64,000 bases of DNA from positions 13,917 to 77,916 of the IMG/VR virus record IMGVR_UViG_3300045988_065173, one strand, 5' to 3'. A program made the translations under genes and the position numbers. The notes beneath the pieces were generated by a model, which searched no databases, was not told the origin of the DNA, and saw only the letters and a program-made list of their open reading frames with translations. Position 1 is the stretch's first letter, and the number at the start of each line of letters is the position of its first letter. This document shows positions 1 through 41,426 of the stretch, piece by piece. Source of the DNA: a virus.

Positions 1-197
1 ATATGAACATCTACAGATGACCCATCCTTTTTATATAACTTTAATGTTTCATCTTCGTATATTCCACTTTCAATTACATTATTATCTAATTCTTCTATGT
101 TCCTACTTATATAATCTTCTACTTCCATTCCAGAATGACCGTCCCATTCTGTTTCTAAGCTAGTAATTTGATTAGGTAAATCTTCAAATTTTGCCAT
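1..197 (-). CDS. hypothetical late protein; ATG at 197-195, 3' end runs off the window
   Basis: Minus-strand ATG at 197-195 followed by a stop-free frame to the window edge (MAKFEDLPNQITSLETEWDGHSG...). Confidence 0.4.
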   Translation of the reverse strand, partial: MAKFEDLPNQITSLETEWDGHSGMEVEDYISRNIEELDNNVIESGIYEDETLKLYKKDGSSVDVH

Positions 198-202
198 TGT
201 TT

Positions 203-428
203 CAAATTAATTATTTTTCCATAAATCATCTTTTAACCAGGGTCTATCAGGTAACCATGTACCGCTACCAAAACAGCTTCTAACAGCATCATATACGGTA
301 AGCCAGACTAACTACGACCCTTTATATATAGCTCCAATGTTTTTTTGTACTCTTTGCTATACTTGGTCTACAAGTTCTAGAATATCTTTCTGAACCTACA
401 ATATTAATTTACCATTTCTATATATCAT
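203..428 (-). CDS. small late protein; 4 in-frame TAG codons read as sense
   Basis: ATG at 428-426 overlaps the TGA of the upstream gene (ATGA overlap). Frame is open to a TAA at ~203 only if TAG is decoded. Confidence 0.4.
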
Positions 429-778
429 AATTTAGCAAAATCTTCTTTGACTTTGGCTTTAATCTCTTTTAATTTACTGAGATATTCTTTGTATTCCAGT
501 AAAGCTTCGGAATCCTCTGTAGGATTCTCTGTATAACTGTTGTATGAATTGATTAAATCAAATTCTTCATCAACAGTAAGAAAACTTCTAACAATTGCCT
601 TTACACAATCCTTATAATTAGGTTGTCCGCTAAGTAAAACCTAGATAAAGTTATACTAAAGCTCTAATTTAGTATCTCCTTCCTAGTCCGTTACTTCAGC
701 TTCGACTTCTTTTATATCATAGTTATAGTAATAAGTACCGTTCCCAAGTTTTTGGATTGTCTGGGGCTAAACGTCCAT
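425..778 (-). CDS. small late protein; 4 in-frame TAG codons
   Basis: ATG at 778-776 and TGA at 427-425. Translation is protein-like (…LLEYKEYLSKLKEIKAKVKEDFAKL) and is interrupted only by TAG. Confidence 0.4.
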
Positions 779-1979
779 TTGTATTCTATTCGGTTCTAAC
801 ATAAGGTGTTACTTTAAAATTTATAGGAAATTTGTATCTAAGCAAAGAATAATGTAATTTCTTATTCTTGCTTTTAAAATAATAGGGTTTGTTGTTATAC
901 ATAAAGTGCACTCTAAAATGGCTATGATAATCAACTACCTCTATAATGTGAATATACTTATTATAAAACTTAGATATATTGACTTCCTTTCCATTCCAAT
1001 TTGAGAACTTCAAACCAGTCAAAGTTTCTATCTTTTTCAACAAATTCTTAGAATTACAGAATTTCATCCATCCGAAATAAGATCTCATTCTTCTTTCCAA
1101 TTCTTCTCTATCAATCTTATTTTGCTTATATAGATTTATAAGCTTAAACATTCTCATTTTTATAGATTTTCTTAATAGAACGTGAGTGTGGTAAAATTTA
1201 TAGCCTACAAAATCTACTCCTCTACTTTCTACTGGAAATATCTAGTAGTTAGGTTTTAATTCTAAATTAAGAACTTGTTTTAAATACAGTTTTATAGATA
1301 CTAATACATTTCTCAAATAATTCTTGTCATTACCAAGAATCACAATATCGTCAGCATATCGAAAGTAGTACTTACATTTTAACTCCTCTTTTATCCAGTG
1401 GTCAAAATATGTCAGATATAAATTTGCAAAGAACTATGATAGATAGTTCCCAATAGGAACTCCTTTGGCTGAATATATTATTTCCTTCAATAGACTTAAC
1501 AGTTTCTTATCCTTTATTTTCTTCTACAACATCTCATACAGGATGTCATGTGTTATAGATGGATAAAATTTTCTTATATCCATTTTTAGACAGTATTTAG
1601 TTTCATCTGAGTATTTCTACAATACCTTGAATAAATCATACTCTACCTTATGAATCCCTCTATTTCTTATAGAGGAATATGTCTAATCTATAAAAATGCT
1701 GGTCCAGATAGGTTCCATAATATTCATTATAGCATGATGAGTGATTCTATCAGGGTAGTATGGAAGTCTAAAGATTAATCTTTCTTTAGGCTCATATATT
1801 ACAAACGTACTATACTCAGAAGTCTAATAGATTAACTATTTTAATTTGTCTGATAATTTCTTATTTTCTTCTAATCTATTCTTATCATGCTACTTAATAC
1901 CACATCGAATTGATTTATTTCTTCTAGCCTTATCATCAGCTAATTCGATGTTTTTCAAATCATACACTCGTTCGTGCAA
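723..1979 (-). CDS. DGR-type reverse transcriptase with ~11 in-frame TAG codons; alternative GTG/TTG start likely
   Basis: Hand translation of the minus strand gives IYEPKERLIFRLPYYPDRITHHAIMNIMEPIW…TYSSIRNRGIHKV…SQFFANLYL…FRYADDIVILG…VDFVGYKF (RT motifs 1-7 including YADD, DGR-RT-like N-terminal block). The standard-code ORF 786-1157 is only its C-terminal piece and its apparent stop at 788-786 is TAG. The frame continues to TAA at 725-723. An upstream in-frame TAA at 2003-2001 bounds the N-terminus, and there is no ATG before motif 1. Confidence 0.8.
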
Positions 1980-2140
1980 ATATCCTACACGTTTCAATTT
2001 TTATATATTTCATCGGAAGCTTTCGAGATTTAACCTACTAACACCCTTCATTTAACACTACGTTGTCTTTTGCCTAGAGGCAAGGATATCACTTAACAAA
2101 CTAAAAAAAATAAAATAAATTGTTCTAAATATATAATAAC

Positions 2141-2237
2141 TCAACATTGGAATTGGCATTGCTGACGTCATTGTTAGAATTGAAATAGCTAAGACCTGCA
2201 TTGCTACCATTATTCGCATTGCTGCCTACTAGCAGTT
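2141..2237 (-). repeat. DGR template repeat (TR)
   Basis: Minus-strand sequence gaactgctagtaggcagcAATgcgAATAATggtagcAATgcaggtcttagctatttcAATtctAACAATgacgtcagcAATgccAATtccAATgttgag. It is ~85% identical to the two VR copies, and every TR/VR mismatch has an adenine in this copy. In the target reading frame it is rich in AAT/AAC codons. Confidence 0.8.
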
Positions 2238-2310
2238 CTTTTTGCCAACCAACGGCTTTTAGAAGTAATATCCCACGATTTATATCTAAATCGATTTCTA
2301 TATTTTATTC

Positions 2311-4130
2311 TTAAGATACTCTGTTTAGAGTCCTGAACCCAACATAGGAACCGGCATAGCCGACGCCAAGGCCAGAATAGAAATAGCCAAGACCCGCAGT
2401 GCCACCAGAAGCCGCAGTGCCGCCCACCAGCAGCATGCGAAGCGCTGTAGAGCTAGCGTTGCAAGAGTGGTAATCACACATATAAGTTGTAGTTGAGGCT
2501 CCAGTACAAGAAGATGGTATAATCTCTGCTGTCTCTCCCAAGTCAAACTCTTTAATGTATCCATCTTGCGCTACCTCATATCCTGCTATGGTCTTGCTGC
2601 CAATTACGTCAGTAAACTCTTCCTTATTTGTGGTAGTATATACACTACTGATTTCATTTGCCGCAGTTCTTTGAATAACTACTCCATCTAAGTTTGTCCA
2701 AATATCTCCAAATGGATTGTCAAAACCTCTCCAACGTGGTACTTTGAAAGTGTGAGTAGCTACTGTATCTGTTCCGTTTGTTGCAGTACATTCTGGAATA
2801 ACTAAATCTTTGACTCCAGTGAAATTACCAATATCATTACAATAACCACATGGAGTAATAGGATAAGTTCCATTATATCCAGACCAACTTGTAGCAGAGT
2901 TACTCCAGTCTGTAACTCCAGGACCAAGTCCTCCTTGACGATAACCATCAGAGGTAAGCTCGGCATTGTAGGCAGCCTGAGAGTTAAAGTTAGCGTATTC
3001 TATTACATAGTTCCAGTAGAATATCCATTTATAATATTCATAACACAATAATTCAGAGCCTGCATTTGTGGCATAAGTTCTCATATTAGCTCTAGAAACA
3101 TTAGTTCTAGGTTTTCCTAAATCGCTTCTAAAAGCATCTTTGGTATCAAGTTCAGTAGTTAGATACTTATCGAATTGTACTCTATTTCCACCGCCTCTAA
3201 ATGCTTCTGTAGTATTGACCACGGACACAGCTTTAGGGGTTTCTGACACAGTATTGTCAACTGTATTTCTATATGCGTCAATTAATAGTTCTGGTATTTC
3301 TGCCCACGAATCATCAAGCTTTACTAGAGAAATTCTAACCCATCTTTTATTTCCATTAGAGCCTGATTTACCATAAAATTTAGGAGTGTGGACTCTTACA
3401 GTTCCATCAGTTCCATCAAGCACAGAAGGAGTAATTCCATCTTCTTTGTAAGCCCAATCGTCTGGATATAAATAGTAATTTACTACACCGTTATTTGCTA
3501 CACATCCTCTGTAAGCAGACTAAATAGGAAGGGATTTATGTAACAGTGGATTTCCTATTCTAGTAAGGATAGGAGAAGATACAGTGATGTCCCATTCTAC
3601 TCCATAAGAGTATAAGTCTACGTTACTGCTTAACTCTGTGACTTGTTTGCTTAGACTCTATTGTTCTTTTTGTAATTCTTCCCAAGCAGTATTAAGAGCA
3701 TCAAATTGTTCCTCTAACTTAGTACTAGTATCTGCCCACTATGCAGTCCCATCTTCAGAAAAGGTTAAAATCTATCCAAGTGCTCCTCCAGCAGGTATGT
3801 GTTTATTTCCAGAAGTAGTTGGGTGTACATAATTATTTGCATTATCTGCAATACCACTAAGTTTCTGTTTTTCAGTTTCTGTGTAATTAGCTTCAGAAAG
3901 TCCTTTTCCTGATTCCTTATCTACCTTACTTTCCAACTCCGTTTTAGTAGCTAAACCACTTATATCCTAGTGTTCTTTTAAATAATTTTCATCATTCTAT
4001 AACTAAGACACTTTAGTTGGAATGGCACTAGATTTTGCGTATGTCTAATCTATAGCATTTCCAGAGCCATCATAGGTAGCCTTTAAGTCATATACGGTTT
4101 CTCCAACCTTTATAGATTTGATAGCTGCCA
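2311..4130 (-). CDS. tail fibre / receptor-binding protein, DGR target 1; ~8 in-frame TAG codons
   Basis: ATG at 4130-4128 right after the TAA of the upstream gene. N-terminus MAAIKSIKVGETVYDLKATYDGSGN…KVDKESGKGLSEANYTETEKQKLSGIADNANNYVHPTTSGNKHIPAGGALG(Q)ILTFSEDGTA(Q)WAD carries the widespread phage tail-fibre motif, with TAG at positions that are Q/E in that motif. The standard-code ORF 2311-3423 (370 aa, GTG start) is only the C-terminal part. An in-frame TAG sits at 3522-3520. VR1 lies at the C-terminus. Confidence 0.7.
2338..2436 (-). repeat. DGR variable repeat VR1 (C-terminal 33 codons of the tail-fibre gene)
   Basis: Aligned by hand to the TR. All ~15 mismatches are at TR adenines (c,g,t in VR versus a in TR). 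Confidence 0.8.
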
Positions 4131-4132
4131 TA

Positions 4133-7100
4133 TTATTGTATTATTAAAGTTTCTTCTTCTACATTATGATCTATTCTTTCTATGGAGGCAGTTAAGTCTT
4201 CAACAGCTTTCTACAGTTCAGCCTTGGTAGCGTAGTTCTTTAATGTATCTGGGTCTATTCCAGATCCTCCTACATTTCCTCCAACAACTTTTACTGGTTT
4301 TGCTGAGTTCTTAAACTACCCTTCAACCCAAATTGTTCCCATACTATTTAAAATATTAATTGTTCATTTTCTCCATCTACCTGTACATTACCAGAACCAG
4401 GCTATATTGCATCTATTTTCTTCTACAATTCGTCTACAGCAGCCTTTATTAATCCTTCCACCTCAGCTTTTGTATAGTAACGTTCTGTTAGATATTCACT
4501 TCTGACATATCCTGTATCCTATATATCTTTTTCTCCATAAGTACAATAGTACGTATCGTTCTCTGTCCTATTATTTTCAACTAGGTCATCATAATCTGTT
4601 TGTGGAAGACATACCAATTTAGGAACCTCTTCTGTAAGAGCAACTTGCTTTCCAGATGCTAATAATCTATCGTCTTCTGTAGTAAGTTTAACAGAACTTT
4701 CAATAGTCTGTTCAGTTGTTTCATCTTCTGAACTTTCTCCAGTTGTTCTCTATTGTACTTCTTTTTCGACAATTTTCTAAATAGTAATATCAGAAGTTTC
4801 TATAGAGGTTGATTTTAGAAGCTCTGTGCTAAATTCCTTAGAAGCGGCATCCTAATCTTCCTAATATTTCTTCTAAGTAACAAATATAAAATCGTCATCA
4901 CCGGTTTCAGGAGAATCTCCTCTCAAACTTTCTTTTGTCACATACTCCTCTGCTATCTAATTGGAAAGGTCAGTTAATGACTATTGAGTGGCGTATGTAG
5001 ATTGAGCATTTTCTTTTGTAAGAAACTTTTCATCTACCTACGAGCTAGTGTAGTATGCTTTAATATCTTCTGTAGTAACGTAGCTTCCTAGTTTCTATAA
5101 ACCAGAAACAATTTCATCAATCTATGTCTTTGAGTAATAATTAGTAGCAACCCAGGACTAATACTGATGTGTAGTATGGTAATTTTGATCTAAGTACTCC
5201 TTAGTAATATAGACTTTAGCATCATTTGTTACATCATACACATAGTAATATGTGTCAGGTTCTATAGCATCCTCTTCTACCAGTCTTAAATATTCCTCTT
5301 CAGTTAATGTAACCAGATTAGGAACATCTGACATCATGGCGAATTGGTCTTCTCCAACAAACAACCCATTAGATTTAACATCTACTACTAGCTAATCCTC
5401 TTCTCCTACTACTGGAGACTTTATCTATCCTACAGTAATACTTTCTAGGGAACCATCTCCATCTACCTTTAAAGTCTTATCTAGCTCATCTTGGATAGCC
5501 TATTGGTCTTCGTCATACTATTTCTTTGTAACAAAGACAAAATCATCTCCTTCCATTCCTTCTCCTCTAAGACTTTCTTTGGTAACAAATATGTCATCAG
5601 TTTCTTCCTTAGTGTAATGGTTAGACAAGGCTTTAGATAACAAGGATTCTGGGTCCTCTAAATCTAGGTCAGTTTTAGGGGCATAATTCTCAGTTAATTC
5701 TTCAAGGGTAGCATACTTGGAAAGGTTAGAGATTGTCTAGTCTAAATCCGTTCTAATCTGTACGACAGTAGTATTTAGAGCTTTCTATTTCAACTATTCC
5801 TCTATCTTTTTACCCCATTCTGCTGATAAATAAAACTAATCATCATCTAGGCTGTCTTCATATATGTAATAATATGTTTCTGCATGAAGATATGTTTTAC
5901 CTTCGTCTATAGGTTTAAAATCTTCTGTGGTATTCTCAGACCATTCCTTATATTCAGCCTCTGTACAGGTGATTATCTAAATAGATTCATAAGAAGCTTT
6001 CCAACCTTCTTTGTATTTAATCTTAGACTTATCTACTAACATATAAATATTTCCGTTATCTATATTTGAAACGGTCATGCCTTGATAAGCATATTTCTCC
6101 GGAATAGAATATAATTCGTCTAAATTATTGACTACTGTTCTATTATCAAGAGGTTTAGGAGTTTCTACGGTTAAAGCAACACCTAATGTAGCATCACCTG
6201 TATATTTAAATGCCATTATTGTGATAAAGTAAAGTTAATTTGATGAGGCAATGCTGAAGAATAAGTATCCTTCTTAGTCCATACTTTATAAGGAAATCCA
6301 TTTATCTATTCGGTAGAAGTTTCCCAGCCACTTAAATCAACATTTAAGTATCCCAGTCCTCCATCTACTGTAAATGAATTTAGCTAAGTATTACTTCCGG
6401 GTAATTTTATAATAGCCTTTCCACTTAATGAAAATGTAATAATTCCAGAAGATTGTCCAAATGGAACAAGACTCTATTTGATTAAACTATCTGTATTACC
6501 AGAATACCAAGGGTAGGTAGCAGTCACCTATGCTGTAGTTGATATTGAACCAGCTTCCACCCTCTTGTCTGTAGTTTCTCCTTTATTGTTAATAAGATAT
6601 TCTCCAGCAGCATAATTTACAGTACCAGAATGCACATAAACACCAATAGAATCATATATTTCAGATTCTACAGGAGAATCATTATAGGTAATAGTTTCTT
6701 CTCTATCAGTTTCCTCTCCAGCATCATTTTTTATAAATGTTAAGGTAGGGGTAAGTAAAGCGGATCCTACCTCCACAATCTAAGAGGTGAAGCTATAATA
6801 CAACTAAGGATAAACCAAATCTCTAACAACAGTAGGAAATAATAGAGTATCTATAATCTCATTAAACGGCTTTCCTTTCAATTTTTCAACTGTAGTTCCT
6901 TGAATAACAGCAGAAGTGGTATCATCTGGAAGTTCAGTTTGATAAGTAGCTATAGTTTCTAAACTTGTCTATATATTTGTGATATTCTCAGTATTAGAAT
7001 CTACTTTAGAATCAGTGTTCTTCTAAGCTTCCTATACTCCCTTAACTTCTTCCTTTACCTCTGTTAGAGATGGTTCCAGGTCTTTTACATATATTCCAGG

Positions 7101-10100
7101 TAGGACTACTGTAGAAGGCTCTCCTTCCTCCTCTACTGGAGGAATTTCCTACTAAATAAGATGTATTGCGTTATCCTCCTACTAGGATAGAATTACTTCT
7201 AGAGTATTATCATCCTTTATTTCTATGGTTTTGGAGTTTCTTAGACTATTAGTTATCCAATTCTAGATGTTTTTGTCAACATCTATATTTTTGATAGACT
7301 CGTTAATACCCTCTATTGCCTCATTAATCTCGACTATTTTCTCAGAAAGATTGTTTATGCCAGTTCTGTTAGATTCAATTTCTTCTTCAAGTTCTTCCTT
7401 AAGTACAGTAATAGAAGTTCTGATATTACTTATATCAACTTTTATTTCCTCTATTTCTTCTGTATTAGCTTTGTACTAACTTATAAAGAATAAAGCATAA
7501 TCTAAGGCATCTTTTACAGTATTGATATTCTCTGCAACATCACTAGTATAAGTCCATTTCTATTCTATGTACTATACTAAATCTTTCTAGGCTTCTATAG
7601 TTCCTTCTATATTTCCCCAAAGAAGACTCTACTCATCAGCGATACCTAGATTCTTTCTAACCTTAGCTCTTTCTAATTCAGTTCTATATTCTCCAAGATA
7701 GTTGTTTCTTAGGAGAGGTATAGGTTCACTTTTTATTAAATGTCCTTTCTTTCCACAAGGCTTTATATCAGCATTGCTTACCGAAGTGTAAATAGGCTGT
7801 ATCATTATGATTCAATAATTGCTATTTAATAAATTCGTGATTATCTAATTTTACGGGTAGGTTAATAAAACAAATTAGATTCAAAATATCCTAATAATCT
7901 GGTCTATATCCCTTTCTAACCCTTTTAAGGAAATCCTCATACCTTTTAATAGCCTTTCTTTTAAGAGCATCCACAACCTATACGTTTATGTTCATGGTGA
8001 TTGTCACAGAATCCACCGCAAGTGCGGAACATTGCTAACAATCTTTCAGCTTCCATGAATTGTTTAAAGCCTATTAAATAATCTATAATATTAAGTGTCA
8101 TCCAGATAAAATCTCTTGCAAATATATCTGCATCATGTTCTCTAGTTAGACACTTATTTAATAAAAAGTCAAAGAGTTTCTTACAGTAGTTAATATAACA
8201 CTATTGCAGATTTCCTGTAAAGAACACATCTACCTTACATTTTTTGATAGTAGTCCCTTCTATATTCCTTTCAAGGATTTCTTTTACAGTACATTCCTCT
8301 AGCTCTCCATCTACTTCTTTATATAGTTTCTCTCCATCAGTTATATAGATAGTTTCATAATACTCCTTGTATTCATCAGATGAATTTTCATACCATTTCA
8401 TATTAGGAAGAATTATGTGGTCTACTACATAATATCCATCTTCTTTTACCTTAAATGTACAAGAGTCTAAATCCTCTGTATGGTCATTGAGAAGTACGTC
8501 TATCAAAGTAGCATCTCCTATACTAACTTTTATGATAGTATTTAGGGTAGCACTTTCACTATACTTATAAGAATCATAGGAAGTTACTACCTCTAAATCT
8601 TCATCAATATACTATCCATATTCCTTTGAAAAGTCTTCAATAGTTATTTCCCCGTTAATCTGGGTATGTATATCAATACTAAATTCCATATTATAATAAT
8701 TAAGACTCAGTAGTAGGCCATTGACCATATTGAGCAGGGATAGAAAATGGTTTCCACTTACCTTCTTGTCGTATACGTCTAGACATAAAAACTGAACTAA
8801 ATGATAAACTAATATCTTGAGGATAGTCTGTCCATGTATATGACTAACCTTCAGGAGTCGGTGGTAGACTATTTAACTTACCAGCTGGTTCCCCATTCCA
8901 ATAATAATTATAGTCATATGCTTTAGTTGGAGTAACAGTTGTTGTTTCATGTCCTTCCGAATCTACATATAGAGGATTTCCCTCCTCATCTGTTTTCTAC
9001 TTATACTCAATAACTGGAGTTATTCCCTCAGTTCTAGTGTATATGTTCTAAATAATAGTAGAAACATCACTTGCTACAATCTCATAAATAGTAGTTCCCT
9101 GAGATTCGTCAGCTCCCTAGAAAGTAAATTTAGTTCTTTTCCAGATGTATGGATTCTCTTCAGTTGGAAGTTCAAAAGTATCAGTCCACTATTTATTAGA
9201 TAATTTTATCTCAGATTCGTCAGCAGTGTCAGCAGGTAAGTAATGAATCTTAATAATAATATTATTTACCGCCTCACTAGAACCAGAAAGGTCTGACACC
9301 TATTTAAATAGTTTCTTTAAATCTTCTTCCACATTTGATTTGGAACCAGAAGCATTACTAATAATTACTGAACCATCTGAAATAGGATAAATCTATTGCT
9401 AATCCTTATCATATACAATTGTTCCAGTTGCCATATTAATGTATTTGTCTTATTTTGTCATTATACGGATTTCCATCATGAAGCTAAGCCAACTCTATTT
9501 CAGTTCTCTTTTCTTCTATATCCATTTGTCTATCTTTATATGTAGAATCAGATTGAGCTTTGAGCCAGTTAACCTTATATTCTAACTATATTTTCTGCTA
9601 CTCTAATCCTAATCTCTATTCATCCAAGCTTTCTATCTTCTACTAAGCTTTCTATAGTTCTTGCTATAACTGCTGTGCCTATTGTGAAGTTTCTTCCAAT
9701 TTTTCCTATAGCTGCTATAGCTAATTGTTTTCTTCTTTACGAATCTATACTGCTTTCTTAACCTTATATTTAAGGTCTGTAAGACTCTTAGCAGTTAGTG
9801 CCTCAAATATAATGTCAGGATCCATTTGCTGACTTTTAACAAACTCTGGAATAATAGCTTTAATAGTTTGTAAATCTTCCATTACTTCAGAGCTAGAAGT
9901 TATATGGATGTCATAATCAGTAACCGTAAAATATTCTGGAAGCGCTGTAAATATCTGCTGGTATTTATCTCCAAGTATAATAGTACCAGTCAATCCTTTC
10001 TTATATGTTATTTTAGCCTAGTTTAGACTGTCCAATAATATCTCACAAGTGATCAGATCCATCTACTAGAAATAATGCTTGGTTACTATGTAAGAGTTAG

Positions 10101-11540
10101 TAACACCTTGCTTAATATTAGTTACAGCATCATGAGTTTCTATTCCATTTAATCTTTCTCTAAATACTCCAGTTATAGATGATGTAGTTTGTTCTACTGA
10201 TTGAATTGCTAATTCAATAGCCTATACAGCCTAAGCTTTTAAGGTATCATCAAATCCATTGTATATCTAGTTAGGTGCTTGCGCTCCATCATTTCTTCCC
10301 TCCTAAGTGGAATCAATCCACATGATACCACCCTTCTTGTATGCTAACCATTTCTACACTCTTTCTGGCCATTTTACGCCTAGGTTAGTAGGAAGCAATG
10401 ACATATCCATGATTACTCCAGCAGTACCGCTGTTAGCTATCAGGTTGTCCCTATAATAATTTAACAAGTCATATCTATCCTATAGATGTGCACATTTTAA
10501 TATCAGGGAGTATGGTTGTTGAGAACGATTTAAGAAATATACCCCATTTACAGACAAAGAGCAGAAATTAGGATTATCTTTTGACCTCATAACAGTCTTG
10601 TCTAGACCTCTCAGAATATATATTTCTTCTCCAATTCTAATGGTATTGTATCTCTACATTACAAAATCGTCATCAGTTTCTATCCACTCTACATCATAAA
10701 CAGGAATTAACTAAAATCTATGAGCACTATATTCATTATCTGGATATCCAGGAATAGTTTCATGATTCTAGTCTTCATTTACTATAGTACAAGTGTCACC
10801 ATAAACTCTTCTATAAACTGCAGCTGAATCATCGGCTCTCCATTCATCTTTTAGTCTTTTCAAATCTTCTCTAGAGATTTCTTTTCCGTATTTAGCTAAT
10901 ATCTAGCTTTTACTCATCCATTTTCTAACTACTACTCTATACGAATTTTTAACATATGGAGATTCTGGATTCCTATCTACGAAAGTATTTAAAGGATTCA
11001 GAACTTCTATTTCTATGTTAGTTCCAGAAGATGATGATTTTACTCTGAAAAATGTATAGCCAGTAATTAATAAATCTGTAAGTAACTATCGGAGTTTAGT
11101 TATTAAATCGGTTTCTCTAGACTGCATGATATAATGAATAATATTCTATGCAGCTATCTCATATTGAGAAATAAAAGACTAATCAATGTCTTGAATAATT
11201 TTATCTAACTAAGTCTTCACGGCTTTATCTGTAATATCTTTTCCGTCGATAAATTTCAGAATAGAATTACTTAAATGGTCTCTAAGAAATTTAACTATCC
11301 CTTTAGTTATTTCCAACTATTTTTCTCTGGTGATATTACTAATGGTATCTGAATCCTTACAAGAAATCTTCGGAAGGATAGGGGTTCCTAGATATTCCCC
11401 TACTAGAGCATCTACGTGCTTCTTTAGTAATGGTGTAAATTCTACAGAAGTAGGACTACCTATTCCGAAGTTTTCTTCCAGGTAACGAAACTATTCTGGA
11501 TCTCTCTTTCCGTTGTAGTAATTATAGGCTTTCTATAATT
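4133..11540 (-). other. late structural gene block (head/tail/portal genes presumed); minus-strand coding with TAG as sense, individual genes not resolved
   Basis: Dense minus-strand coding signal but only short standard-code ORFs (5158-5364, 5977-6216, 6528-6776, 8201-8506, 9745-9993). Every checked interruption is 'cta' on the plus strand, i.e. TAG on the minus strand. Confidence 0.5.
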
Positions 11541-11548
11541 CGTACTTA

Positions 11549-14165
11549 TCATATACAAGCTCCGCAATAGCCTCGTTCGTCTTGTCTATCAGTTCTTTTT
11601 CTTTCATAACATAAATTATGCTGTTCTGGAGGAAGTTTAGTTGCATTATAGTATTTAACTCTTTGTAACTTCCTACTTCTTAATTCTTCCTTTATAAATG
11701 GGAGAAATTCTTCATCAGGTAAATCAGCTATAATGACTAAAGGCATCTCTGACCTATCAAAGTTAAATGATACCTTATAACCAACTGGATCTAGGTTCTG
11801 AATTTCAAGCCCACCTACGTATTCCATTTTGTACAAGTCTCTCATATAACCTAGGATCACTTGTTTCAATTCTGTATGGGTCATCGTATTCATTTTTTTG
11901 TATGTTAGTTTCAAAAGTCTTAGAAGTTGGTATAACCCCAAATCTTTTGATTCCTCTCTCGTCGTAATAATAACCATAATCTTGGAATTGTTCAACTTCT
12001 TTTTCAACAAGCACTGGCTATCTTCCTGACAATTCCTAGTCTGCCAATTCTGTCATTCCTACAGCGGCTACAATATCGAATTTACCTTTATTCTCATCAT
12101 TATATCCAGTAAATTGGTCTAACATTTCTTCAAACCATATAGTATGACAGAAATCCTCAATAAAGGCTGCTGTCAAATCAGTATGTTGTTCTATAATAGT
12201 TTTGGTAGCGGGTGTTCCGTACTATTTAGTAGTTCCATTCTTGACGTCTGTTAGAGTAGCTCTAGGTCTTTTCATAAAGTAGTTTAAACAACCCTTTTCT
12301 CTAGCCCAGGTAATCATACCTACACGAGTAGCTTCTATGTTTATTCTACAATTATAGTATCTAGCTAAACACATAGCTATTTTATAGGCTTCTCTAATGT
12401 CATTAGGTCTGTCTTTATACATAGCAACATACTACGGTTCGTTTAGACCAAATGCTCTTCTTTTTATAGTTATACAGAAATCAGAAGGGTCTCTTGTTTC
12501 TTTTGAAGTTTGACTAGCTCCTATATCAATGCCGTCTATTCCTGCAACATATAAATCATGCATTTCTTTATACGCTGGAGATTCAAATTCTTCTCCCCTT
12601 TCCTCAGCTTCCTATCTAAGTTTATCCATCTACTCTTTATACAAATCAGACCATACAGGATGTTCAAGTATTTTTACTTTTCCGTTAATATTAGGAATCC
12701 ATTTAAAACCATCTATATTATCCTAGGTGTGTTTATTATTTTTATAGAAGTAGTCTATGTATCCAGATTCTGGTCTTGGTCCTATTTTCTTAAGTCTTAT
12801 ATTAGCTAATTGGTCTGCAATAAGAATCTTGTTGAACTTGTTAACACCTTCAAGATTAAATGCTTCTTCTGCATTCCAACATCGTTCGGCACACTTCTTT
12901 AGATAGTCGTCTGGAACTGCTAATAAATTGTCACGCTCTTCCTATAGATACTTTTTATATTCTACTGTATTACACACACCTCTATGGTCCATGTATTCTG
13001 AATTTAGAGACTAGACAAAATATGGAATGAAGAACCCACTTTCAATAGTAGTCCCATCCTGTGTATAATTATGTCTAAATGGAAGAACTTTGTAAGCTTT
13101 TGGATTATAATATATTTTCTTAAGACCTGCTAATGGAGCACCCATATCACCACCAGTACCTCCAAATAACATTGTTCCACGAGGTTTACCCTGAACTTCA
13201 CAAAGCTCTTGTCCCTGCACTACAGCAGTATCTAGTCCAGGCCAAGACCCTGCTTCATCATATATTAATAGGTCAACACGGTCTCCACGAATATTAGATG
13301 CCTTAGCTCCATTTATTCCAACTACTTCTGATTTAAACCCAACATCCTCAAACTGCCCGTTTACCTTAATCTGTTTACCGGACTTCTTTCTTAAGTCTTG
13401 GTCAATCAAACGTAGTTTGAAGAATCCTCCTCCTGTACAAGTATTCAAGAATGTTAAAGCATTATCAAACTTACTAAAAGTACCTTTAAGGAAGGTATCA
13501 TTAAAACAAGTAATCATTACTCTGCTTCTTCTGATTACTGAATACATTCTTGCAGATAAGGATGCATTTATTTCAGAGAATCCAATAGAACGAGCTTTCA
13601 TGAGAGCTGCGTGTTTATGCAGGACTCTAGCCATCTATAGATAATGAAAGAACATATAATGAGATGCGAAAAATATAGGAAAGTCACTACTTGTTCCTTC
13701 TCCAGATGCCTTGTTATCATCAATAATAGGAAGCTAGTAGAAGTTTAGGAAGAAATAGTTATCTCCAGTAATTGTATAACCATTAACAGTCATTCCATAT
13801 TTACATCTTCTATACTATTCCTTCCAAAACTCATTATATCTCTTACTATCTTTTAGATATGGACAATACTTTCCAGTTTTTCTATATACTTCTCTGGTCT
13901 CAGTAAACCAATCTGGGTCGAAGTCAAGACCGTGTGTTTCATCTATTGGTCTATATCCAGTTATTTCATAAGATAAAGTAGGGTCAAATACCTCTATCTT
14001 ATCTCCTCTTTTTACATCCCAATAATCAGCATTTTTGCCTCTTTCCTCTCTTATCTTCTATACTAGTTCTCTAGCTTCTTTGGCATCCTCTTTTTGTTCT
14101 TTCTCTCTTACCTAATCTACTATATTCTAGATTTCTTCAGGTAATATTTTTTTCTTTCTAGGCAT
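11549..14165 (-). CDS. terL: terminase large subunit (TerL), multiple in-frame TAG codons; boundaries approximate
   Basis: ATPase-domain fragment 13011-13634 has a Walker-B-like DLLIYDEAG and a Walker-A-like LMKARSIGFS. The frame reads through TAG at 13013-13011 into nuclease-domain fragments (12222-12422, 11549-12010), and also upstream through TAG at 13637-13635 to an ATG near 14165. Confidence 0.6.
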
Positions 14166-15547
14166 AATTAAAAGTCTCCTGGGTCAAAGCCGTCTATAGC
14201 TCCACCTCTTACAGTAGATTGTTCTGTAAGCTCTTTCTTAACCTGCTCTTCTAGTGTTACTAATTCTTCATGAACTTTATGAAGAGTAGCCATTTCTTTC
14301 ATTACCTTTTCAGCTTGAAAGACGGGTTTGCCATTATTATCACGTTCATTTAAATCTACTATAGTATCAAAATAATCAATAAACTAGTCAGCTGCTCTTT
14401 TAGCTGCTTCTAGAAGTTTTATTGATTTGTTAGAATCCTATAATGCTCGGTATTTTCTACAGGCTTCCCTGAATAATGGGTCATTAAATTCGGATTCAGA
14501 TAGTCCAGAGTCGCTAATAGCCTCATCATGTCTTTCATGTTCTGAATATTGGCTATAAGGACTCTTCCAATCAATAGCTAGATAAATGTAAGATAATTCT
14601 CTAGTTACTCGTTCCTTGTCAACAGATTTATCTCTCTGTATCAAAGCCTTAAACTCTTTAACTAGAAGAAGCTCTGGTTCATTTATTTCTAACTATTTAG
14701 TTAAAGTGTTATAATTAAATACATTCATACTCATCAATCATTAACATTAACATCTTTAATCTTTTTATTTCATTTTAGAACCGCATTTACTTACTTTCAT
14801 TTTAGAACCACAAGAATCCTTCTTAGCATACTTTGTTCTATCTGGAACCCATTTTCCATTTTTAAAGTTTCCTTTATGTCCCTTATTTGCCATGACCTCC
14901 TAGTCATTATATTTATTAATAGATACAGAATCTCTAGATGCTTCATCCTTTGCAGATTTCATATCCTTTCTATACTAAGCTCTTCCAGCCTTGAACTTGT
15001 CGACCTCATTAGCTTTCTTAGTAACCTTAGTTCCTTTCTATGCTTTTTGGCAAGCTTTGCAGATTCTTCCTCCCTGTTTAAAATAAACAAGTTCCTCTCC
15101 TTCTGGGCATACTCCTTTTAATTTTTTATAGTATTCTAGTTTAGCTCCAAGTCTAGCCATAACTCCGCCTTGCATCTTCTACATAAATTCTTGATACTTA
15201 GCTTTAATTCCATCTTCTCCAAGCTATTCAGCGTAAGCCTATAAATCTTGCTCTGATTGTAATTGTATTCCTTGTGCTTGGGCATCTTGTATCAAGTATG
15301 CCATGAATGCCTTCCGTAATTCTTCCTAATTAGCCATTACTCTTCTACTTTAATTAAATCCTTTGTATTAAATACTGCTTCCTGCATTAATCCAGAATCA
15401 GTAAACCATCTACATCTTAGTCCTCGTAATCCTTGGTTATCTTTAAATAAAGCTGCTTCTCTTCTTAGAACAAGCATAACTGGAGAGTGCATTACTTTAC
15501 ACTACCGTAAAGTAACACAATCCCCAGGCTTAAAATAAACTTTTTCA

Positions 15548-16150
15548 TCAATTGTTTCCATGCTTCAATTCGTCTCTTCTTTCAGTTAGTTTCTCATTAA
15601 CTACAGCCATGATTCTATTCTCATTAACTACTACAAATCCTAGTTTATAGAATGGAACCATACATTCACTAGCTATTGTATAAAATACAATATCTCCAGG
15701 CTTCAAGAACTCACACTTATGTCCTACTTCTATCACAGTTCCTACCTTAATAAATTGTTGCTCTTCTTCAATTTCTCCAGTCTCATTAGATTTATAAGTA
15801 GGAGTAAATCCACCTAAATCAGTAATAAGACCACTTTTAGTAGTTTTTATTTTTTGGAATGGGTTTTGTTCAAAAGGTTTAATTAATGCATACCCATACA
15901 TCGGCATAATTTCAAGTCCATTCATATCGTTAGATAATGACTTAGCGTAATCCTCTAGTGCCTGATTATGTTTGGAGAATTTATCTTCTAACTCATCTAC
16001 TGAGGTATTAAACTTCTCTTGTTTTTCTCTTAATAATGTTTGGTCTGCAGCCTCCCCATTTAAAATAAAATGTTCTCCCGTACCTTCCATTCCAGTTAAT
16101 GATAGCGCTAGTTTTTCGTTACTGTTTAATTCTGTTCTTAAAGTTTCCAT
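15548..16150 (-). CDS. hypothetical protein
   Basis: Intact 200-aa ORF with no TAG needed. Confidence 0.5.
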   Translation of the reverse strand: METLRTELNSNEKLALSLTGMEGTGEHFILNGEAADQTLLREKQEKFNTSVDELEDKFSKHNQALEDYAKSLSNDMNGLEIMPMYGYALIKPFEQNPFQKIKTTKSGLITDLGGFTPTYKSNETGEIEEEQQFIKVGTVIEVGHKCEFLKPGDIVFYTIASECMVPFYKLGFVVVNENRIMAVVNEKLTERRDELKHGNN

Positions 16151-16158
16151 AATTCATT

Positions 16159-16542
16159 TTACCATTTACATAAATCACAATGTTCATCTTCAATTCTTGT
16201 TTTATTCTCTAATATACAACCACATTCATCGCACACTTCCCCAACAGATGTTTGTAATTTATGGGAACAAGCGTTACAAATTTTTAATCTTTTGGTTGCC
16301 AAATCTTGATTTATTCCGAATATATTGAAATATATACTTTTCAATATTGTTAAAGGTTTAGTAAATATTGCTTTAATCCACTTCCATATCATATCTTTTT
16401 CCTCCTTTATTTCCCTATTTATGACAGTAAGTATATAATGCTTATCTGGTTTATATAATATAGGAGTTCCATAAATTACCATTTCCCTGCTGGACAATGT
16501 TTCTTTTCGTTTGGAATCTTCTTCTCTAGTAAACATCCACAT
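16159..16542 (-). CDS. small Cys-rich protein (CxxC pairs, ends …HCDLCKW)
   Basis: Intact ORF. It is paralogous to the overlapping ORF 16476-16691 (…HCPAGKW). Confidence 0.4.
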   Translation of the reverse strand: MWMFTREEDSKRKETLSSREMVIYGTPILYKPDKHYILTVINREIKEEKDMIWKWIKAIFTKPLTILKSIYFNIFGINQDLATKRLKICNACSHKLQTSVGEVCDECGCILENKTRIEDEHCDLCKW

Positions 16543-16691
16543 CCCTTTATATACCCTTCTTTAGGGCTTATACTTATATCATTATTCTTTGGATTTAGAT
16601 ACAAATGCCCATTACATAATCCATTATCTTGGTCACATATTGGGCAGCGTCTACATATCTCAAATCTTTCTTCTATTTCCTCTAGTGTCAT
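16476..16691 (-). CDS. small Cys-rich protein, paralog of 16159-16542
   Basis: Intact ORF that overlaps 16159-16542 by 67 nt in another frame. Same CxxC…C…HC…KW pattern. Confidence 0.35.
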   Translation of the reverse strand: MTLEEIEERFEICRRCPICDQDNGLCNGHLYLNPKNNDISISPKEGYIKGCGCLLEKKIPNEKKHCPAGKW

Positions 16692-16693
16692 AA

Positions 16694-17608
16694 TTAATAT
16701 TCAATACGTTGACGTTTTCTTTTATTTTCTGCCAATATAGATTCCTTCTTATAGAAGGCTAGCATTTTTATAACCTCATCTTTTAGATATGGTAAATGAT
16801 ATACTGTCATATTGTCATTATGGTCGAAATGTACCAAAACCAAATCCTCTATTTCAAACTCTGGATTTTTCTTTTGAATCATCCAAGCATAAGTACTTAA
16901 TTGTAAAGTATAGTGCCAGTAATTAACATCATCTAAATTATTTAGAGGATATTTCATCTTAACAGAAGTTTTGGTTTTAGAATTGAAGAAACTCTTAGTT
17001 TCTATTTTCTTATTGGTCTTCCAATCTCCTATAATTATCTTATTTCCCCTTTTAACTAATAAGTCAATCTGTCCTGCTATTCTTAGCTTTCCATCATCCG
17101 ATACTCTAGATATTAAATACTCAGGATATACACCATTCTCTAAGTCTAATTCATTGTGGTCTTTTATACACTCGAACTTACCACCTATTTGATATTTACT
17201 AAGGTCTATGTTCTGTTTCTTTTTATAGAAAGAGTTTTCCAAATCTGCATGGATTTTAGTTCCCCTCTCGCATGAGTTTCTATTCTCTAAATCCCAAGCA
17301 TCTAAGATAGCTTGTTGCTCTTTATTAAACTCGTCTTCTGTAATGTTATGAAGTTCAAGTAGAACTTTATCAAATTTCTTAGTGTTCAACAAAGACTTTT
17401 TTTCTATAGCCCAATCTTCTTTAGGTAAGAGTTTCTCTAGTGCTTTATATGCTGACCAGAACTCCTTATCAAATGGTTGGGTGAAAGAATGAATTAAAGT
17501 CGTTACAGATATAAACTTCTGTTCTGGCTTTGTAACATCATAATAAATATGAGCTTCTTCCTCAAAAGCTATGTTCCCATTTTGTTTTGTAATTTTACTT
17601 TTGTCCAT
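16694..17608 (-). CDS. PD-(D/E)XK exonuclease, YqaJ/lambda-exo-like
   Basis: Motifs IDLLV…IIIGDWKTNKK (D…D/ExK) and YTLQLSTYAWM (QxxxY). Confidence 0.6.
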   Translation of the reverse strand: MDKSKITKQNGNIAFEEEAHIYYDVTKPEQKFISVTTLIHSFTQPFDKEFWSAYKALEKLLPKEDWAIEKKSLLNTKKFDKVLLELHNITEDEFNKEQQAILDAWDLENRNSCERGTKIHADLENSFYKKKQNIDLSKYQIGGKFECIKDHNELDLENGVYPEYLISRVSDDGKLRIAGQIDLLVKRGNKIIIGDWKTNKKIETKSFFNSKTKTSVKMKYPLNNLDDVNYWHYTLQLSTYAWMIQKKNPEFEIEDLVLVHFDHNDNMTVYHLPYLKDEVIKMLAFYKKESILAENKRKRQRIEY

Positions 17609-17722
17609 TAGTCATAATTCATTTAATCATTTATCACATTTATCTATATTTATTTGATACTTTTCAAGTATATTAATATTCTTTGTAAGATACAAATCAA
17701 TAAATAATACATTATATTAAAA

Positions 17723-18065
17723 ATGTCTAACAGTAATAAAATTACAACATTTGGGTGTCCAATTTTTAAAAATGGGTCGGGCATTCACATTAAAGAGAAG
17801 AACAGAGGCAAATTTACAGCATCTGCTAAGGCTGCAGGATAGTCTGTACAGGAACATGCTAAATCTGTACTAAACAATCCTAATGCTACTCCTCTTCAGA
17901 AGAAGCGTGCTAACTTTGCTAGAAACGCGGCTAAATGGAAACACGAAGATGGAGCTAAGATACATAAACCAAGTGGACATAGATCTATTCTAGATAATGG
18001 ATGGATTCCTACTACTAGATTAAAGAAAGGAAATTATGGATTAATTAAAACAAGAAAGCAATGAA
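17723..18065 (+). CDS. hypothetical protein; 1 in-frame TAG
   Basis: ATG at 17723. Frame open to TGA at 18063-18065 except for one TAG (GGA TAG TCT). Confidence 0.45.
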
Positions 18066-18139
18066 CGCTGTAGTTAAATTAATTAAAGAATTTATACTTA
18101 AGATATATCTTTATTTACTATTTATATTTAATAAGTAAT

Positions 18140-18331
18140 ATGGACTATAATAGAGCAACTCTTTATGCGGCTACTGGTCGTACTTTATTACTCCCTGGCT
18201 GGAAAGGATATTTTTATTGGGACTATACTAAGAATGAATTAAATTTTAGAAATGGAGACTATCATTTAGATAACAAATAGCTCAAGGAGAAAGGAGTTAT
18301 GGAACGTAATGATTGGTATTATATAATATGA
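18140..18331 (+). CDS. small hypothetical protein; 1 in-frame TAG
   Basis: MDYNRATLYAATGRTLLLPGWKGYFYWDYTKNELNFRNGDYHLDNK(TAG)LKEKGVMERNDWYYII. Confidence 0.4.
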
Positions 18332-18382
18332 TAATTAAAGAGGTAATTAAAACAATTGTAGTAACTAAATATAGAATTACTT

Positions 18383-18847
18383 ATGAGTTGGTTTTCTGAA
18401 TTATTTACTTTGGCGGGCAGTCTTTTTAAAGATATTGATTAGAAAGAAGAACCTAAATTAATCTAGATGAAGTATTTTCCGTTTAATGGATTTTCTTATA
18501 TGTCTTGGTGCGGAAATATTATTTATAAAAAAGATAGATATGCTAATATAAAAGAATAGTCTTTGTGGCATGAGAAGATTCATATTCTATAGGCAGCTAA
18601 GAGTTATAAGAGATGGTATTAGTTCTATTTAAGCTATCTTAAATACTGGATTAAAGGTAATCCTATTAGTAATCCTTCTATTAGTGCTTACTATACTATT
18701 CCTTATGAAATGGAAGCCTATGCTAATGAGGACAATCCTAATTACTAGGTAACTAAAGATAGTTATAAAAGATATATTATAAAAGATAGAAAGAATACTT
18801 TTAGAAAGAACAGAAGTAATTGGATTAAGTTTATTAAATAGTTATAA
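18383..18847 (+). CDS. HExxH-motif protein (putative metallopeptidase-like); 6 in-frame TAG codons
   Basis: MSWFSELFTLAGSLFKDID(Q)KEEPKLI(Q)MKYFPFNGFSYMSWCGNIIYKKDRYANIKE(Q)SLWHEKIHIL(Q)AAKSY… contains a WHEKIH (HExxH) motif. Stop codon is TAA. Confidence 0.45.
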
Positions 18848-18854
18848 AAAAATA

Positions 18855-18898
18855 GGCGAGCCTAGAGATTAGGTTCGCCTATTTTTATTTAACATTAT
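18855..18898. terminator. bidirectional rho-independent terminator between convergent genes
   Basis: TAGGCGA…TCGCCTA, a perfect 7-bp stem, flanked by an A-run on the 5' side and TTTTATT on the 3' side. Confidence 0.6.
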
Positions 18899-19112
18899 AC
18901 TTTGTATCATAAGTACAAGTGATTCTATTTATACCATCCTCCCACCAAGGTTTATCTGATGGCTATCTAATACCACTTGGGATGGTTATTGTAGGAGTAG
19001 AAGTTTCTACTATAGCATCTAGTATTTTAAATAATGTATCCAAGTCAAATTCTGGAAATTCATTATGTAAGTTTGTCAATGTCTTTTTAAAGTCTATCAT
19101 ATTTAATATATC
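18885..19112 (-). CDS. small hypothetical protein; 1 in-frame TAG
   Basis: MIDFKKTLTNLHNEFPEFDLDTLFKILDAIVETSTPTITIPSGIR(TAG)PSDKPWWEDGINRITCTYDTKYNVK. Confidence 0.35.
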
Positions 19113-19265
19113 ACACTTAGTCTATTTAATTCATCTAGGTAATCTAGAAACCATTGTTCATTTTGTCTCCCTTCTTCTGCAACAATCTCAATTAAAGATT
19201 CTGCTGCTAGGAGTATAGTTTCAGATAACTCTTTTAAATTTGGCTTAGTTAGTTCGTTGTATTTA

Positions 19266-19580
19266 TCAGTCAAGTTTAACATAATCCATCCAATCTTTTA
19301 TATATGATTTACATTCCTCTAAATCTGGATAGATACTTGCTATAGTGCAACCTGTTTTTGGATTCCTAAAATGATGGAGTTTTGCTTCCTCATTTTTCTC
19401 CTCTTCTATATTTCTATTTAATGTTCTATTCCAGTAGTTGTATTTCTCATCTAGTATTTCCTTATCACATTCTTCCAATATTTTCATATTGGGATTACTC
19501 ATTATTTTGTCATACTTTCTTTTTAAATTAGAAACTTTGACAACATCATTACCATTCAATACGACTGCACACTGTTTCAT
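19266..19580 (-). CDS. hypothetical protein
   Basis: Intact 104-aa ORF. Confidence 0.5.
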   Translation of the reverse strand: MKQCAVVLNGNDVVKVSNLKRKYDKIMSNPNMKILEECDKEILDEKYNYWNRTLNRNIEEEKNEEAKLHHFRNPKTGCTIASIYPDLEECKSYIKDWMDYVKLD

Positions 19581-19804
19581 TTCAATACCTTATAAGTACA
19601 TATCTTACCTATCTGTTTTCCTTGAACTGTTATTTGTGGAAGAAAATAGCAGGCTTGATTCTCAAATTCTTGAGGTACAAAGATATAATCAAACTTACTT
19701 CCAACTACCTTCTCACAAACTTTATTCCAATCGTCTCCCTCCTCTATAATAAGAGTTTTAGCTCCTGTTGGAGTTATTACATAATTCTCATTTAATTTTA
19801 TCAT
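19577..19804 (-). CDS. hypothetical protein (MIKLNENYVITPTG…)
   Basis: Internal ATG of ORF 19577-19879. The longer N-terminus overlaps the tRNA and is rejected. Confidence 0.45.
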   Translation of the reverse strand: MIKLNENYVITPTGAKTLIIEEGDDWNKVCEKVVGSKFDYIFVPQEFENQACYFLPQITVQGKQIGKICTYKVLK

Positions 19805-19811
19805 AACTATT

Positions 19812-19883
19812 AATTTTGGCGTTGCCCTACTAGGATTCGAACCCAGACTAAATGATTTAGAGTCATCTGTGCTGACCATTACA
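19812..19883 (-). tRNA. tRNA-Sup(CTA), amber suppressor, glutamine-like
   Basis: Minus-strand sequence tgccctatggtgtaatggtcagcacaGATGActCTAaaTCATTtagtctgggttcgaatcctagtagggcaa. Full cloverleaf with anticodon loop c-u-CUA-a-a. The acceptor, D and T arms are near-identical to tRNA-Gln(TTG) at 33768-33839, including U1-A72. Confidence 0.85.
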
Positions 19884-19949
19884 CCATAGGGCAGTAACTT
19901 ATTTCTCTTTTAGAGATTTATTTTCTGCTGCCAATTTCTCTAGTTCTTT

Positions 19950-20432
19950 TCTTAATTGTTCATTTTCGTGAAATAAAGCCTGCATAGTAGCGTTGATATT
20001 AGCTAATAGTATTCTCATTTGAGCAACCTATTCATACATAAGCTTTCAGTTGTTCAATTCTCTTTTTAGCTATATCTGACAATGCCATTTTAAATTTAGC
20101 AATACCAGCTCTTACTGATTCCAATTTTCCACTTTCCAAACATTCTTGAATTTTATTCAATTCGGACTCTCCTAGATATTCGCAGACATCTATAAATAAA
20201 TCATCATCTAAAGATTCTAAGTATTTCTGGAATTTGCCTACTTCTTCATTAGCTAGACAGCTTTCCTCTTTCTATCTTTCATAAGATATTAATAAGAATA
20301 AAGAATCATCTGTGGATTCCGCTTTAATGGTTAGACCATTACTTGATAGATAATACTCCTAGTTCTTATTAATTGCATCAACGAGATTCTTAAACTCGTC
20401 CTAATTTAGTAATGTTTCTAAGTCTGTAATCA
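19950..20432 (-). CDS. first gene of the late transcription unit; several in-frame TAG codons
   Basis: ATG at 20432-20430 (MITDLETLLN(TAG)DEFKNLVDAINKN(TAG)EYY…). Frame is open to TGA at 19952-19950 only when TAG is read through. Confidence 0.45.
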
Positions 20433-41405: not shown

Positions 41406-41426
41406 ACAAACTTTATTTAAAGAATT

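Follow-up and report, generated by a model that had tools for sequence, protein, structure and literature searches.

The stretch of DNA described here, which is called the window in what follows, comprises 64,000 nucleotides (nt) of the IMG/VR virus record IMGVR_UViG_3300045988_065173 (positions 13,917 to 77,916 of that record; all positions below are counted from the first letter of the window) and has a guanine and cytosine (GC) content of 34.9%. It is laid out in two arms: a negative GC skew goes with minus-strand genes from 1 to 21 kilobases (kb), and a positive skew with plus-strand genes from 22 kb onwards. The subject is the meaning of the triplet TAG in the genes of the left arm, which an earlier inspection of the letters (the sequence-only reading) had taken to be a sense codon throughout a 20-kb late and structural block. 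TAG is indeed a sense codon and equals glutamine (Gln); its use is compartmentalised, and which genes contain it is conserved among the relatives of this phage. After trimming of the TAG-sense open reading frames (ORFs) to start codons, the genes of the left arm are the following.

207-428, minus strand: small late-block gene of 73 amino acids (aa), 3 in-frame TAGs, TAA stop.
425-802, minus strand: 125-aa gene downstream of the reverse transcriptase, 4 in-frame TAGs, TGA stop.
723-2000, minus strand: reverse transcriptase (RT) ORF of a diversity-generating retroelement (DGR), Pfam RVT_1, 9 in-frame TAGs.
2311-4131, minus strand: tail-fibre gene, target of the DGR, 606 aa, 8 in-frame TAGs, TAA stop.
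4348-6216, minus strand: structural gene, 622 aa, 23 in-frame TAGs.
6216-7805, minus strand: tail protein, 529 aa, match to phrog_788, 19 in-frame TAGs.
7961-8689, minus strand: 242-aa gene, 2 in-frame TAGs.
8700-9434, minus strand: 244-aa gene, 8 in-frame TAGs.
9436-11607, minus strand: portal protein, 723 aa, Pfam P22_portal, 33 in-frame TAGs.
11805-14165, minus strand: large terminase (TerL), 786 aa, 15 in-frame TAGs, TGA stop.
14168-14734, minus strand: 188-aa gene, phrog_16390, 3 in-frame TAGs.
14765-15337, minus strand: 190-aa gene, 7 in-frame TAGs, the first of them at codon 3.
15548-17608, minus strand: genes for a GroES-like protein, a small Cys-rich protein and a PD-(D/E)XK-type exonuclease (15548-16150, 16159-16542 and 16694-17608), no TAG.
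17723-18064, 18140-18331 and 18383-18847, plus strand: three genes with 1, 1 and 7 in-frame TAGs, respectively, the last matching phrog_15610 (protease).
19266-19589, minus strand: TAG-free gene in the recoded arm.
20032-20433, minus strand: 133-aa gene, the final TAG-containing gene of the left arm, 3 in-frame TAGs.
20596-21447, minus strand: HNH/EndoVII-like gene, no TAG.

Conserved phage genes of this arm, such as those for TerL (786 aa) and the portal (723 aa), are broken under genetic code 11 and are of full length once TAG is taken as sense. Over 1-15400, stop-free frames of 100 codons or more cover a fraction of 0.23 of the bases with code 11, 0.28 if TGA is taken as sense and 0.95 if TAG is; in the last case the minus strand is tiled by ORFs of 792, 747, 628, 609, 531, 425, 303 and 249 codons, whereas the longest ORF with code 11 has 402 codons and the structural arm is fragmented. 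The 16 TAG-containing genes between 207 and 20433 amount to 5216 codons and hold 146 in-frame TAGs beside 80 CAA and 30 CAG codons, TAG making up 57% of all their Gln codons if it is read as Gln, and the first TAG stands at codon 3 to 79 in each of them. They terminate with TAA (11 genes) or TGA (5 genes) and neither triplet interrupts any of them, so stop function is retained by TAA and TGA. Annotation of this phage consequently depends on the recoding, as code 11 leaves about three quarters of the structural arm outside long ORFs and misses TerL, the portal, the tail fibres and the DGR reverse transcriptase.

Most of what the sequence-only reading had said about the frames holds on recounting. 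The five TAG sites that it quoted (5158-5160, 13011-13013, 13635-13637, 3520-3522 and 786-788) each show CTA on the plus strand, an in-frame TAG of the minus-strand gene there; its claims that the frames are interrupted by TAG and never by TAA or TGA and that the genes of the block end with TAA or TGA are both confirmed; and the tail-fibre gene has the motifs GALG-TAG-ILT and GTA-TAG-WAD and the 8 TAGs ascribed to it. In-frame TAGs in plus-strand genes of the block were likewise correctly noticed, but the 11 TAGs counted in the RT ORF are in fact 9. The word "throughout" applies to the 16 genes and goes too far for the block as a whole, because four minus-strand genes (15548-16150, 16159-16542, 16694-17608 and 20596-21447) are free of TAG.

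The amino acid assigned to TAG was examined by a codon-level comparison with 57 related loci (numbered L001 and so on below), of which three were taken from assemblies and 54 from IMG/VR, the GenBank contig L001 being also present in the ORF database; the analysis covers 137 TAG columns of the window in 13 ORFs. Counted as columns in which they occur in relatives, the partner codons of TAG are CAA (89), CAG (77), GAA (42), AAA (34), GAG (18), AAG (17), TAT (8), TGG (5), TAC (4), TTG (4) and TCG (1), and TAA stands opposite a window TAG in none of the 137 columns. Among the codons one base away from TAG, CAG thus far exceeds GAG and AAG. Forty columns are composed solely of TAG, CAA and CAG, no TAG column is all gaps, and in the portal gene every one of the 33 TAG columns shows CAA or CAG in at least one relative. 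A BLOSUM62-based likelihood places Gln at the top (-1212) with glutamate (Glu) at -1347, a gap of 135 log units, and control columns of CAA/CAG, GAA/GAG, AAA/AAG, TAT/TAC, TGG and TTA/TTG recover Q, E, K, Y, W and L, respectively. Furthermore, five more distant relatives (L001, L049 and L054-L056) have no TAG in these genes and serve as comparators in the standard code: Gln stands opposite the window TAG in 58 of 127 cases (46%) versus 3% at other positions, Gln is 44 units ahead of Glu when these homologues alone are used, and gaps occur at 9% of TAG positions versus 14% overall. The outcome that the sequence-only reading had named as pointing to pseudogenisation instead is thus not obtained. 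The reassignment to Gln favoured by the sequence-only reading is in this way upheld. In addition, the Gln of the motif GxxxSQ, which has been described for the RTs of Zeta phages (PMC12386605), is encoded in the DGR RT of the window (here IGNYLSQ) by the TAG at 1434-1436; that this invariant Gln is a TAG is, at the level of sequence, strong internal proof that TAG equals Gln.

A protein-level tally of residues at the TAG sites, which gave mostly Q, was discarded as circular, because the homologous genes themselves carry TAG and the database proteins had been called with TAG as Gln. More than 2400 homologues had been obtained for it by masking the TAG positions in a protein search, many of them of 786 aa, 73-91% identical and located on contigs of 170-195 kb; the genes of these homologues have 16-21 TAGs each, and code 11 does not yield the database protein.

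Two tRNAs with the anticodon CUA are encoded in the window and were found by both ARAGORN and Rfam (66.3 and 59.6 bits as tRNA), among a total of 24 tRNAs, the other 22 being ordinary. The genes concerned are listed below.

19821-19893, minus strand: amber suppressor tRNA A, anticodon CUA (ARAGORN and Rfam).
23289-23359, plus strand: amber suppressor tRNA B, anticodon CUA (ARAGORN and Rfam).
33768-33840, plus strand: ordinary phage tRNA-Gln(UUG), the closest paralogue of suppressor A.

Suppressor A has its top match among the other 23 tRNAs in the phage tRNA-Gln(UUG), to which it is 78% identical, with one mismatch in the D-arm and two in the T-arm. Its sequence is identical in 30 related loci, and variants with compensatory changes in the stems are found in more distant TAG-recoded relatives. 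It is present in all TAG-recoded loci examined except L026, L030-L033 and L039, and is missing from the flanks of the TAG-free L001, L049 and L054-L056.

Suppressor B has a body different from that of suppressor A, with a short and unusual D-arm. A near-identical orthologue in L045 (116-186) has the anticodon CUG and is an ordinary tRNA-Gln, and orthologues with UUA occur in nine relatives (L005 at 707-777, L016 at 69-139, L017, L021, L022, L043, L046, L047 and L051); those of L011 and L012 (2174-2243) have an odd anticodon loop, and in some of the orthologues the D-arm is swapped as well. The carriers of these variant anticodons have TerL proteins 91-100% identical to that of the window. In Escherichia coli, the amber suppressor supE (glnV44) and the ochre suppressor supB (glnU) are tRNA-Gln species in which a one-base change of the anticodon, CUG to CUA and UUG to UUA, respectively, leads to insertion of Gln at stop codons. 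The orthologues of suppressor B resemble them in showing CUG (L045), CUA (the window) and UUA (L005 and others) on one body, and the Gln identity of suppressor B is supported because this series parallels supE and supB. However, unlike the weak informational suppressors of a cell genome, the suppressor here is phage-encoded and needed for about 146 sense TAGs in the window alone. Both suppressors are thus related to tRNA-Gln and would be charged with Gln, and TAG is very probably read as Gln by way of these phage-encoded tRNAs. Recoding of TAA in the relatives with a UUA tRNA was considered and rejected, since the lengths of their TAA/TGA-bounded late ORFs match those of the window; the base pair U1-A72 was rejected as a Gln-specific mark of the suppressors, being weak evidence because tRNA-Leu(AAG) and tRNA-Asn of the window share it.

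The right arm, which carries the replication genes, uses the codons differently. Between 24.5 and 64 kb, 29 large ORFs with 7564 codons contain 222 CAA or CAG codons and not a single internal TAG, the chance of which, at the share of TAG in the late genes, is about 1e-81; the stops of this arm are TAA (49), TGA (12) and TAG (6). Avoidance of TAG is conserved in its replication-arm genes, among them those for DnaB, the SNF2-type helicase, RNase H, Sak4 and the NAD-salvage enzymes. Two of the genes that stop at TAG, an AAA ATPase gene (36367-37119, plus strand) and a gene for a phosphoribosyl pyrophosphate (PRPP)-synthetase-like protein (55246-56058, plus strand), have a TAA immediately after it, and such a tandem, which would limit read-through to one extra Gln, looks like insurance. 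Two genes of the right arm do contain sense TAGs and are the only ones there in need of a suppressor.

35489-36133, plus strand: GIY-YIG homing endonuclease, 3 in-frame TAGs, two of them within the Pfam GIY-YIG domain.
39818-40240, plus strand: HNH endonuclease, 2 in-frame TAGs.

In the left arm, the TAG-free status of the genes for the GroES-like protein, the small Cys-rich protein and the exonuclease is conserved in 29-44 of 39-45 relatives, whereas the structural genes of the relatives have median TAG counts of 3-31; this suggests that these three genes belong to an earlier expression class. The statement of the sequence-only reading that recoding is regional and not strand-specific is accordingly right in that both strands of the block are affected, but the region is not a strict one, as there are TAG-free genes within the block and two TAG-using endonuclease genes in the other arm. 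What is regional is codon usage by expression class; a tRNA works in trans and decodes every message in the cell.

These features may be combined into the following model. The minus-strand arm (about 200-20400) holds virion, packaging and DGR genes in which TAG serves as a Gln codon, and the amber suppressor tRNAs of the phage, with the anticodon CUA on tRNA-Gln bodies, would decode it by the same logic as supE of E. coli, presumably in competition with release factor 1 (RF1) of the host. The plus-strand arm, with its genes for replication, recombination and nucleotide metabolism and its 22 ordinary tRNAs, avoids TAG and would be translatable by the unmodified host. Genes free of TAG would then be translated first in a host using the standard code; completion of the TAG-rich genes (virion, packaging and DGR) would become possible as the suppressor accumulates and outcompetes RF1, and the early TAG in each late gene would block premature synthesis, in the manner of a translational timer or safety lock. 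Read-through of TAG stops in host messages may also harm the host, as an additional role that is not exclusive of the timer. That recoding has such a timing function, following Yutin et al. 2021, Borges et al. 2021 and Peters et al. 2022, is judged to be slightly favoured.

Several other explanations have to be weighed against these interpretations. If the TAGs were real stops, the block would be pseudogenised or the assembly faulty or chimeric, and the fragmented ORFs under code 11 are what would then be expected; however, TAG alone interrupts the frames and TAA or TGA never does, TAG is kept or swapped with CAA or CAG over 57 independent loci, the TAG-as-Gln TerL occurs on at least 1000 contigs, and the Pfam and PHROG matches of the recoded proteins extend over the TAG positions. 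Conservation refutes this explanation, and the probability left for it is negligible. TAG might instead be sense for another amino acid, namely Glu, lysine (Lys), tyrosine, leucine, tryptophan or pyrrolysine (Pyl), since Glu and Lys are the second and third commonest partners and since suppressor B, whose charging with Gln is deduced from its sequence, has an unusually short D-arm; moreover, the default label of ARAGORN for CUA tRNAs is 'Pyl'. But Glu and Lys commonly replace Gln, and the same profile is found in the control columns of CAA/CAG; TAT/TAC, TGG and TTG, each one base away from TAG, are rare, the likelihood puts Gln ahead of Glu both with all relatives and with the standard-code homologues, the bodies of both suppressors are related to tRNA-Gln, the Gln of GxxxSQ is a TAG and no Pyl machinery was seen within the window, all of which makes a different amino acid very improbable.

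The other two alternatives accept TAG as Gln and concern its purpose. TAG could be read as Gln constitutively, by host decoding or by a suppressor made immediately, and the TAG-free replication arm would then reflect history or composition. The position of the suppressor genes, each heading one of the two divergent arms, makes early transcription plausible, and the two homing-endonuclease genes of the right arm use sense TAG; against this stand the complete avoidance of TAG beside 222 right-arm Gln codons, the conservation of the TAG-free exonuclease, GroES-like and Cys-rich genes, the two right-arm TAG stops backed by an adjacent TAA and the report that the hosts of such phages use the standard code (Borges et al., bioRxiv 10.1101/2021.08.26.457843), and constitutive reading is considered unlikely. 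Unlikely, too, is the view that the suppressors chiefly damage the host by read-through of its TAG stops, as an anti-defence, with the sense TAGs of the late genes as a tolerated by-product. Such a role has been proposed (Yutin et al. 2021, PMC7886860; PMC12386605), some Zeta phages retain CUA suppressors without any recoding (PMC12386605), and relatives of the present phage have UUA or CUG at the second locus without recoding of TAA; nevertheless, TAG makes up more than half of the late-gene Gln codons, early in each gene, and so heavy and conserved a use is not passive drift. The damage to the host and the timer do not exclude each other. As for the timer itself and the decoding on which it depends, some points weigh on the other side: the temporal switch is a model carried over from published work, charging of either suppressor with Gln is predicted from sequence, both suppressor genes lie near the divergence point of the two arms, the TAG-recoded L026 and L031 have no suppressor tRNA in the 10-kb flanks examined, and a few right-arm genes end in TAG, among which 35633-36010 and 56296-56769 could be extended by 33-40 codons, although the former is actually the GIY-YIG gene when read through. 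In addition, neither a release factor (RF2) nor an aminoacyl-tRNA synthetase (GlnRS) was found with Pfam and PHROGs among about 40 right-arm proteins, which does not speak for their absence from the phage, the window representing about a third of the genome (64 of about 187 kb).

Bacteroidota promoters differ from the sigma-70 type. Phages such as the present one are reported to encode their own RNA polymerase, and those of the crAss-like Zeta group have genomes of 145-192 kb with many tRNAs, introns, inteins and mobile elements, recode TAG to Gln or TGA to Trp mostly in late genes and encode suppressor tRNAs (Yutin et al. 2021, PMC7886860). In a tblastn search the TerL of the window is 26-29% identical to the TerL of cr-series crAss-like phages (70-84% of the protein aligned, E values from 1e-31 to 3e-40) and 42-45% identical to two human-gut phage contigs that lack annotation. 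Its identity rests on the annotated crAss-like terminases in this search because Pfam gave no match for it. A megablast search of 1-20500 against GenBank phages gave an 89-nt match only and no annotated close relative. TerL with TAG read as Gln is found on at least 1000 public contigs (NCBI, ENA and Logan), five IMG/VR genomes (106-192 kb) encode an identical TerL, and the contigs of near-identical relatives are 183-192 kb long. The window is part of a large crAss-like phage of about 185-190 kb with features of the Zeta group, the named Zeta genomes being matched by features only. The TerL of some close relatives (P0003, with 1131 aa, and L045, L053 and L034) contains an intein (Pfam PF05204, PF05203 and PF14528), and that of the window is without one.

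In the 2025 paper on Zeta phages (PMC12386605), genomes of 176-189 kb with a GC content of 34.5-35.1%, 23-27 tRNAs, a CUA suppressor, amber suppression and a DGR are described, together with amber codons in seven DGR RT genes; for the Zeta phages that the present one matches by features, Prevotella, Phocaeicola or Lachnospira are predicted there as hosts. The amber-suppressing phages of its Table 1 (for example ctoVY1, cthgQ11, 3717_85572 and ctHMy13) resemble the present one in genome size (176-189 kb as against 183-192 kb for the contigs of the relatives), in GC content (34.9% here), in the number of tRNAs (about 23-27 as against 24), in the CUA suppressor, the amber structural genes, the DGR with a tail-fibre target, the amber-containing RT with GxxxSQ and the two-arm layout, and in the frequency of inteins, which are found here in the TerL of relatives; they differ in having one CUA suppressor per genome according to that table, whereas two with different tRNA bodies are present here. 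The crAss-like phages using code 15 share with the window TAG as Gln in structural proteins, suppressor tRNAs and replication genes in the standard code (Peters et al. 2022, PMC9523058; Borges et al.), but there metaproteomics proved that a 191-kb crAss-like phage inserts Gln at TAG in such proteins, and here this is deduced from sequence. Borges et al. (bioRxiv 10.1101/2021.08.26.457843) also reported a lysis-specific bias of recoding and, in TGA-recoded Agate phages, a homing endonuclease with recoded stops in the early region, which is similar to the recoded homing endonuclease within the standard-code arm of the window. Genomes split into blocks with different codes have been detected by Mgcod (bioRxiv 10.1101/2022.06.29.495998), and the window too consists of blocks of differing code, although its boundary is not clean, with TAG-free genes in the recoded arm and TAG-containing endonuclease genes in the standard arm. 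As an example of a dual-code phage genome, the window is otherwise a clean textbook case. The phage, the late-gene recoding of TAG to Gln, the CUA suppressors and the amber-containing DGR RTs are already known, and no new principle is added by them.

The segment 723-4131 is a complete-looking DGR that targets the C-terminus of the tail fibre. The template repeat (TR) lies at 2138-2235 (98 nt), and the variable repeat (VR), at 2336-2433, forms part of the 3' end of the target gene. TR and VR differ by 24 mismatches, all of them at a plus-strand T of the TR, that is, at template adenines on the coding strand, and the RT, with the motif IGNYLSQ, matches RVT_1 with an E value of 2e-18. No avd-like gene was identified.

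Beside suppressor B there are two structured RNAs. An RAGATH-14 RNA (Rfam RF03145) lies at 23042-23233 on the plus strand, upstream of suppressor B and on the same strand, and RAGATH-14 is also found in five relatives (L005 at 804-1010, L006 at 1052-1245, L009 at 1245-1418, L023 at 1451-1623 and L047 at 2085-2255), the matches scoring 150-183 bits and lying 25-55 nt upstream of the tRNA, with a CUA or a UUA anticodon alike. A search of the available literature library for RAGATH-14 gave no paper. Furthermore, a pistol self-cleaving ribozyme (62.3 bits versus a gathering score of 34.5) is located at 23692-23765 on the plus strand. Suppressor B lies about 330 nt upstream of it, and ORFs are few in this stretch, which heads the right arm; no such ribozyme was detected in the seven relatives scanned. 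The upstream RAGATH-14 RNA might govern processing or timing of the release of the suppressor and, in this manner, when the late genes become translatable. The idea that the second suppressor locus is a tunable code-switch cassette, in which RAGATH-14 accompanies a tRNA toggling, in phages with 93-100% identical TerL proteins, between amber (CUA), ochre and amber (UUA) and ordinary Gln (CUG) anticodons, is a speculative one and is held to be improbable. The second suppressor locus with its varying anticodon, the RAGATH-14 RNA and the pistol ribozyme are the sole elements that might exceed published descriptions.

The remaining observations concern the gene content of the window, in whose 64 kb no lysis cassette was identified. 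Products of the right arm include a DnaB-type helicase, an SNF2/ResIII helicase, RNase H, a Sak4-like annealing protein, NAMPT, PRPP synthetase, SPFH proteins and an AAA ATPase. There is a pair of genes for nicotinamide adenine dinucleotide (NAD) salvage, encoding NAMPT/NAPRTase (53264-54853, plus strand) and the ribose-phosphate pyrophosphokinase-like protein (55246-56058, plus strand), and two SPFH/Band-7 proteins are encoded at 31022-32983 and 51600-52436. The 22 ordinary tRNA genes are scattered over 25555-47564 on the plus strand, those for Tyr, Cys, Met and Gly being duplicated. Moreover, weak tRNA matches at 41334-41406 and 41625-41680, given by Rfam and not called by ARAGORN, may be degenerate or intron-containing tRNA genes.

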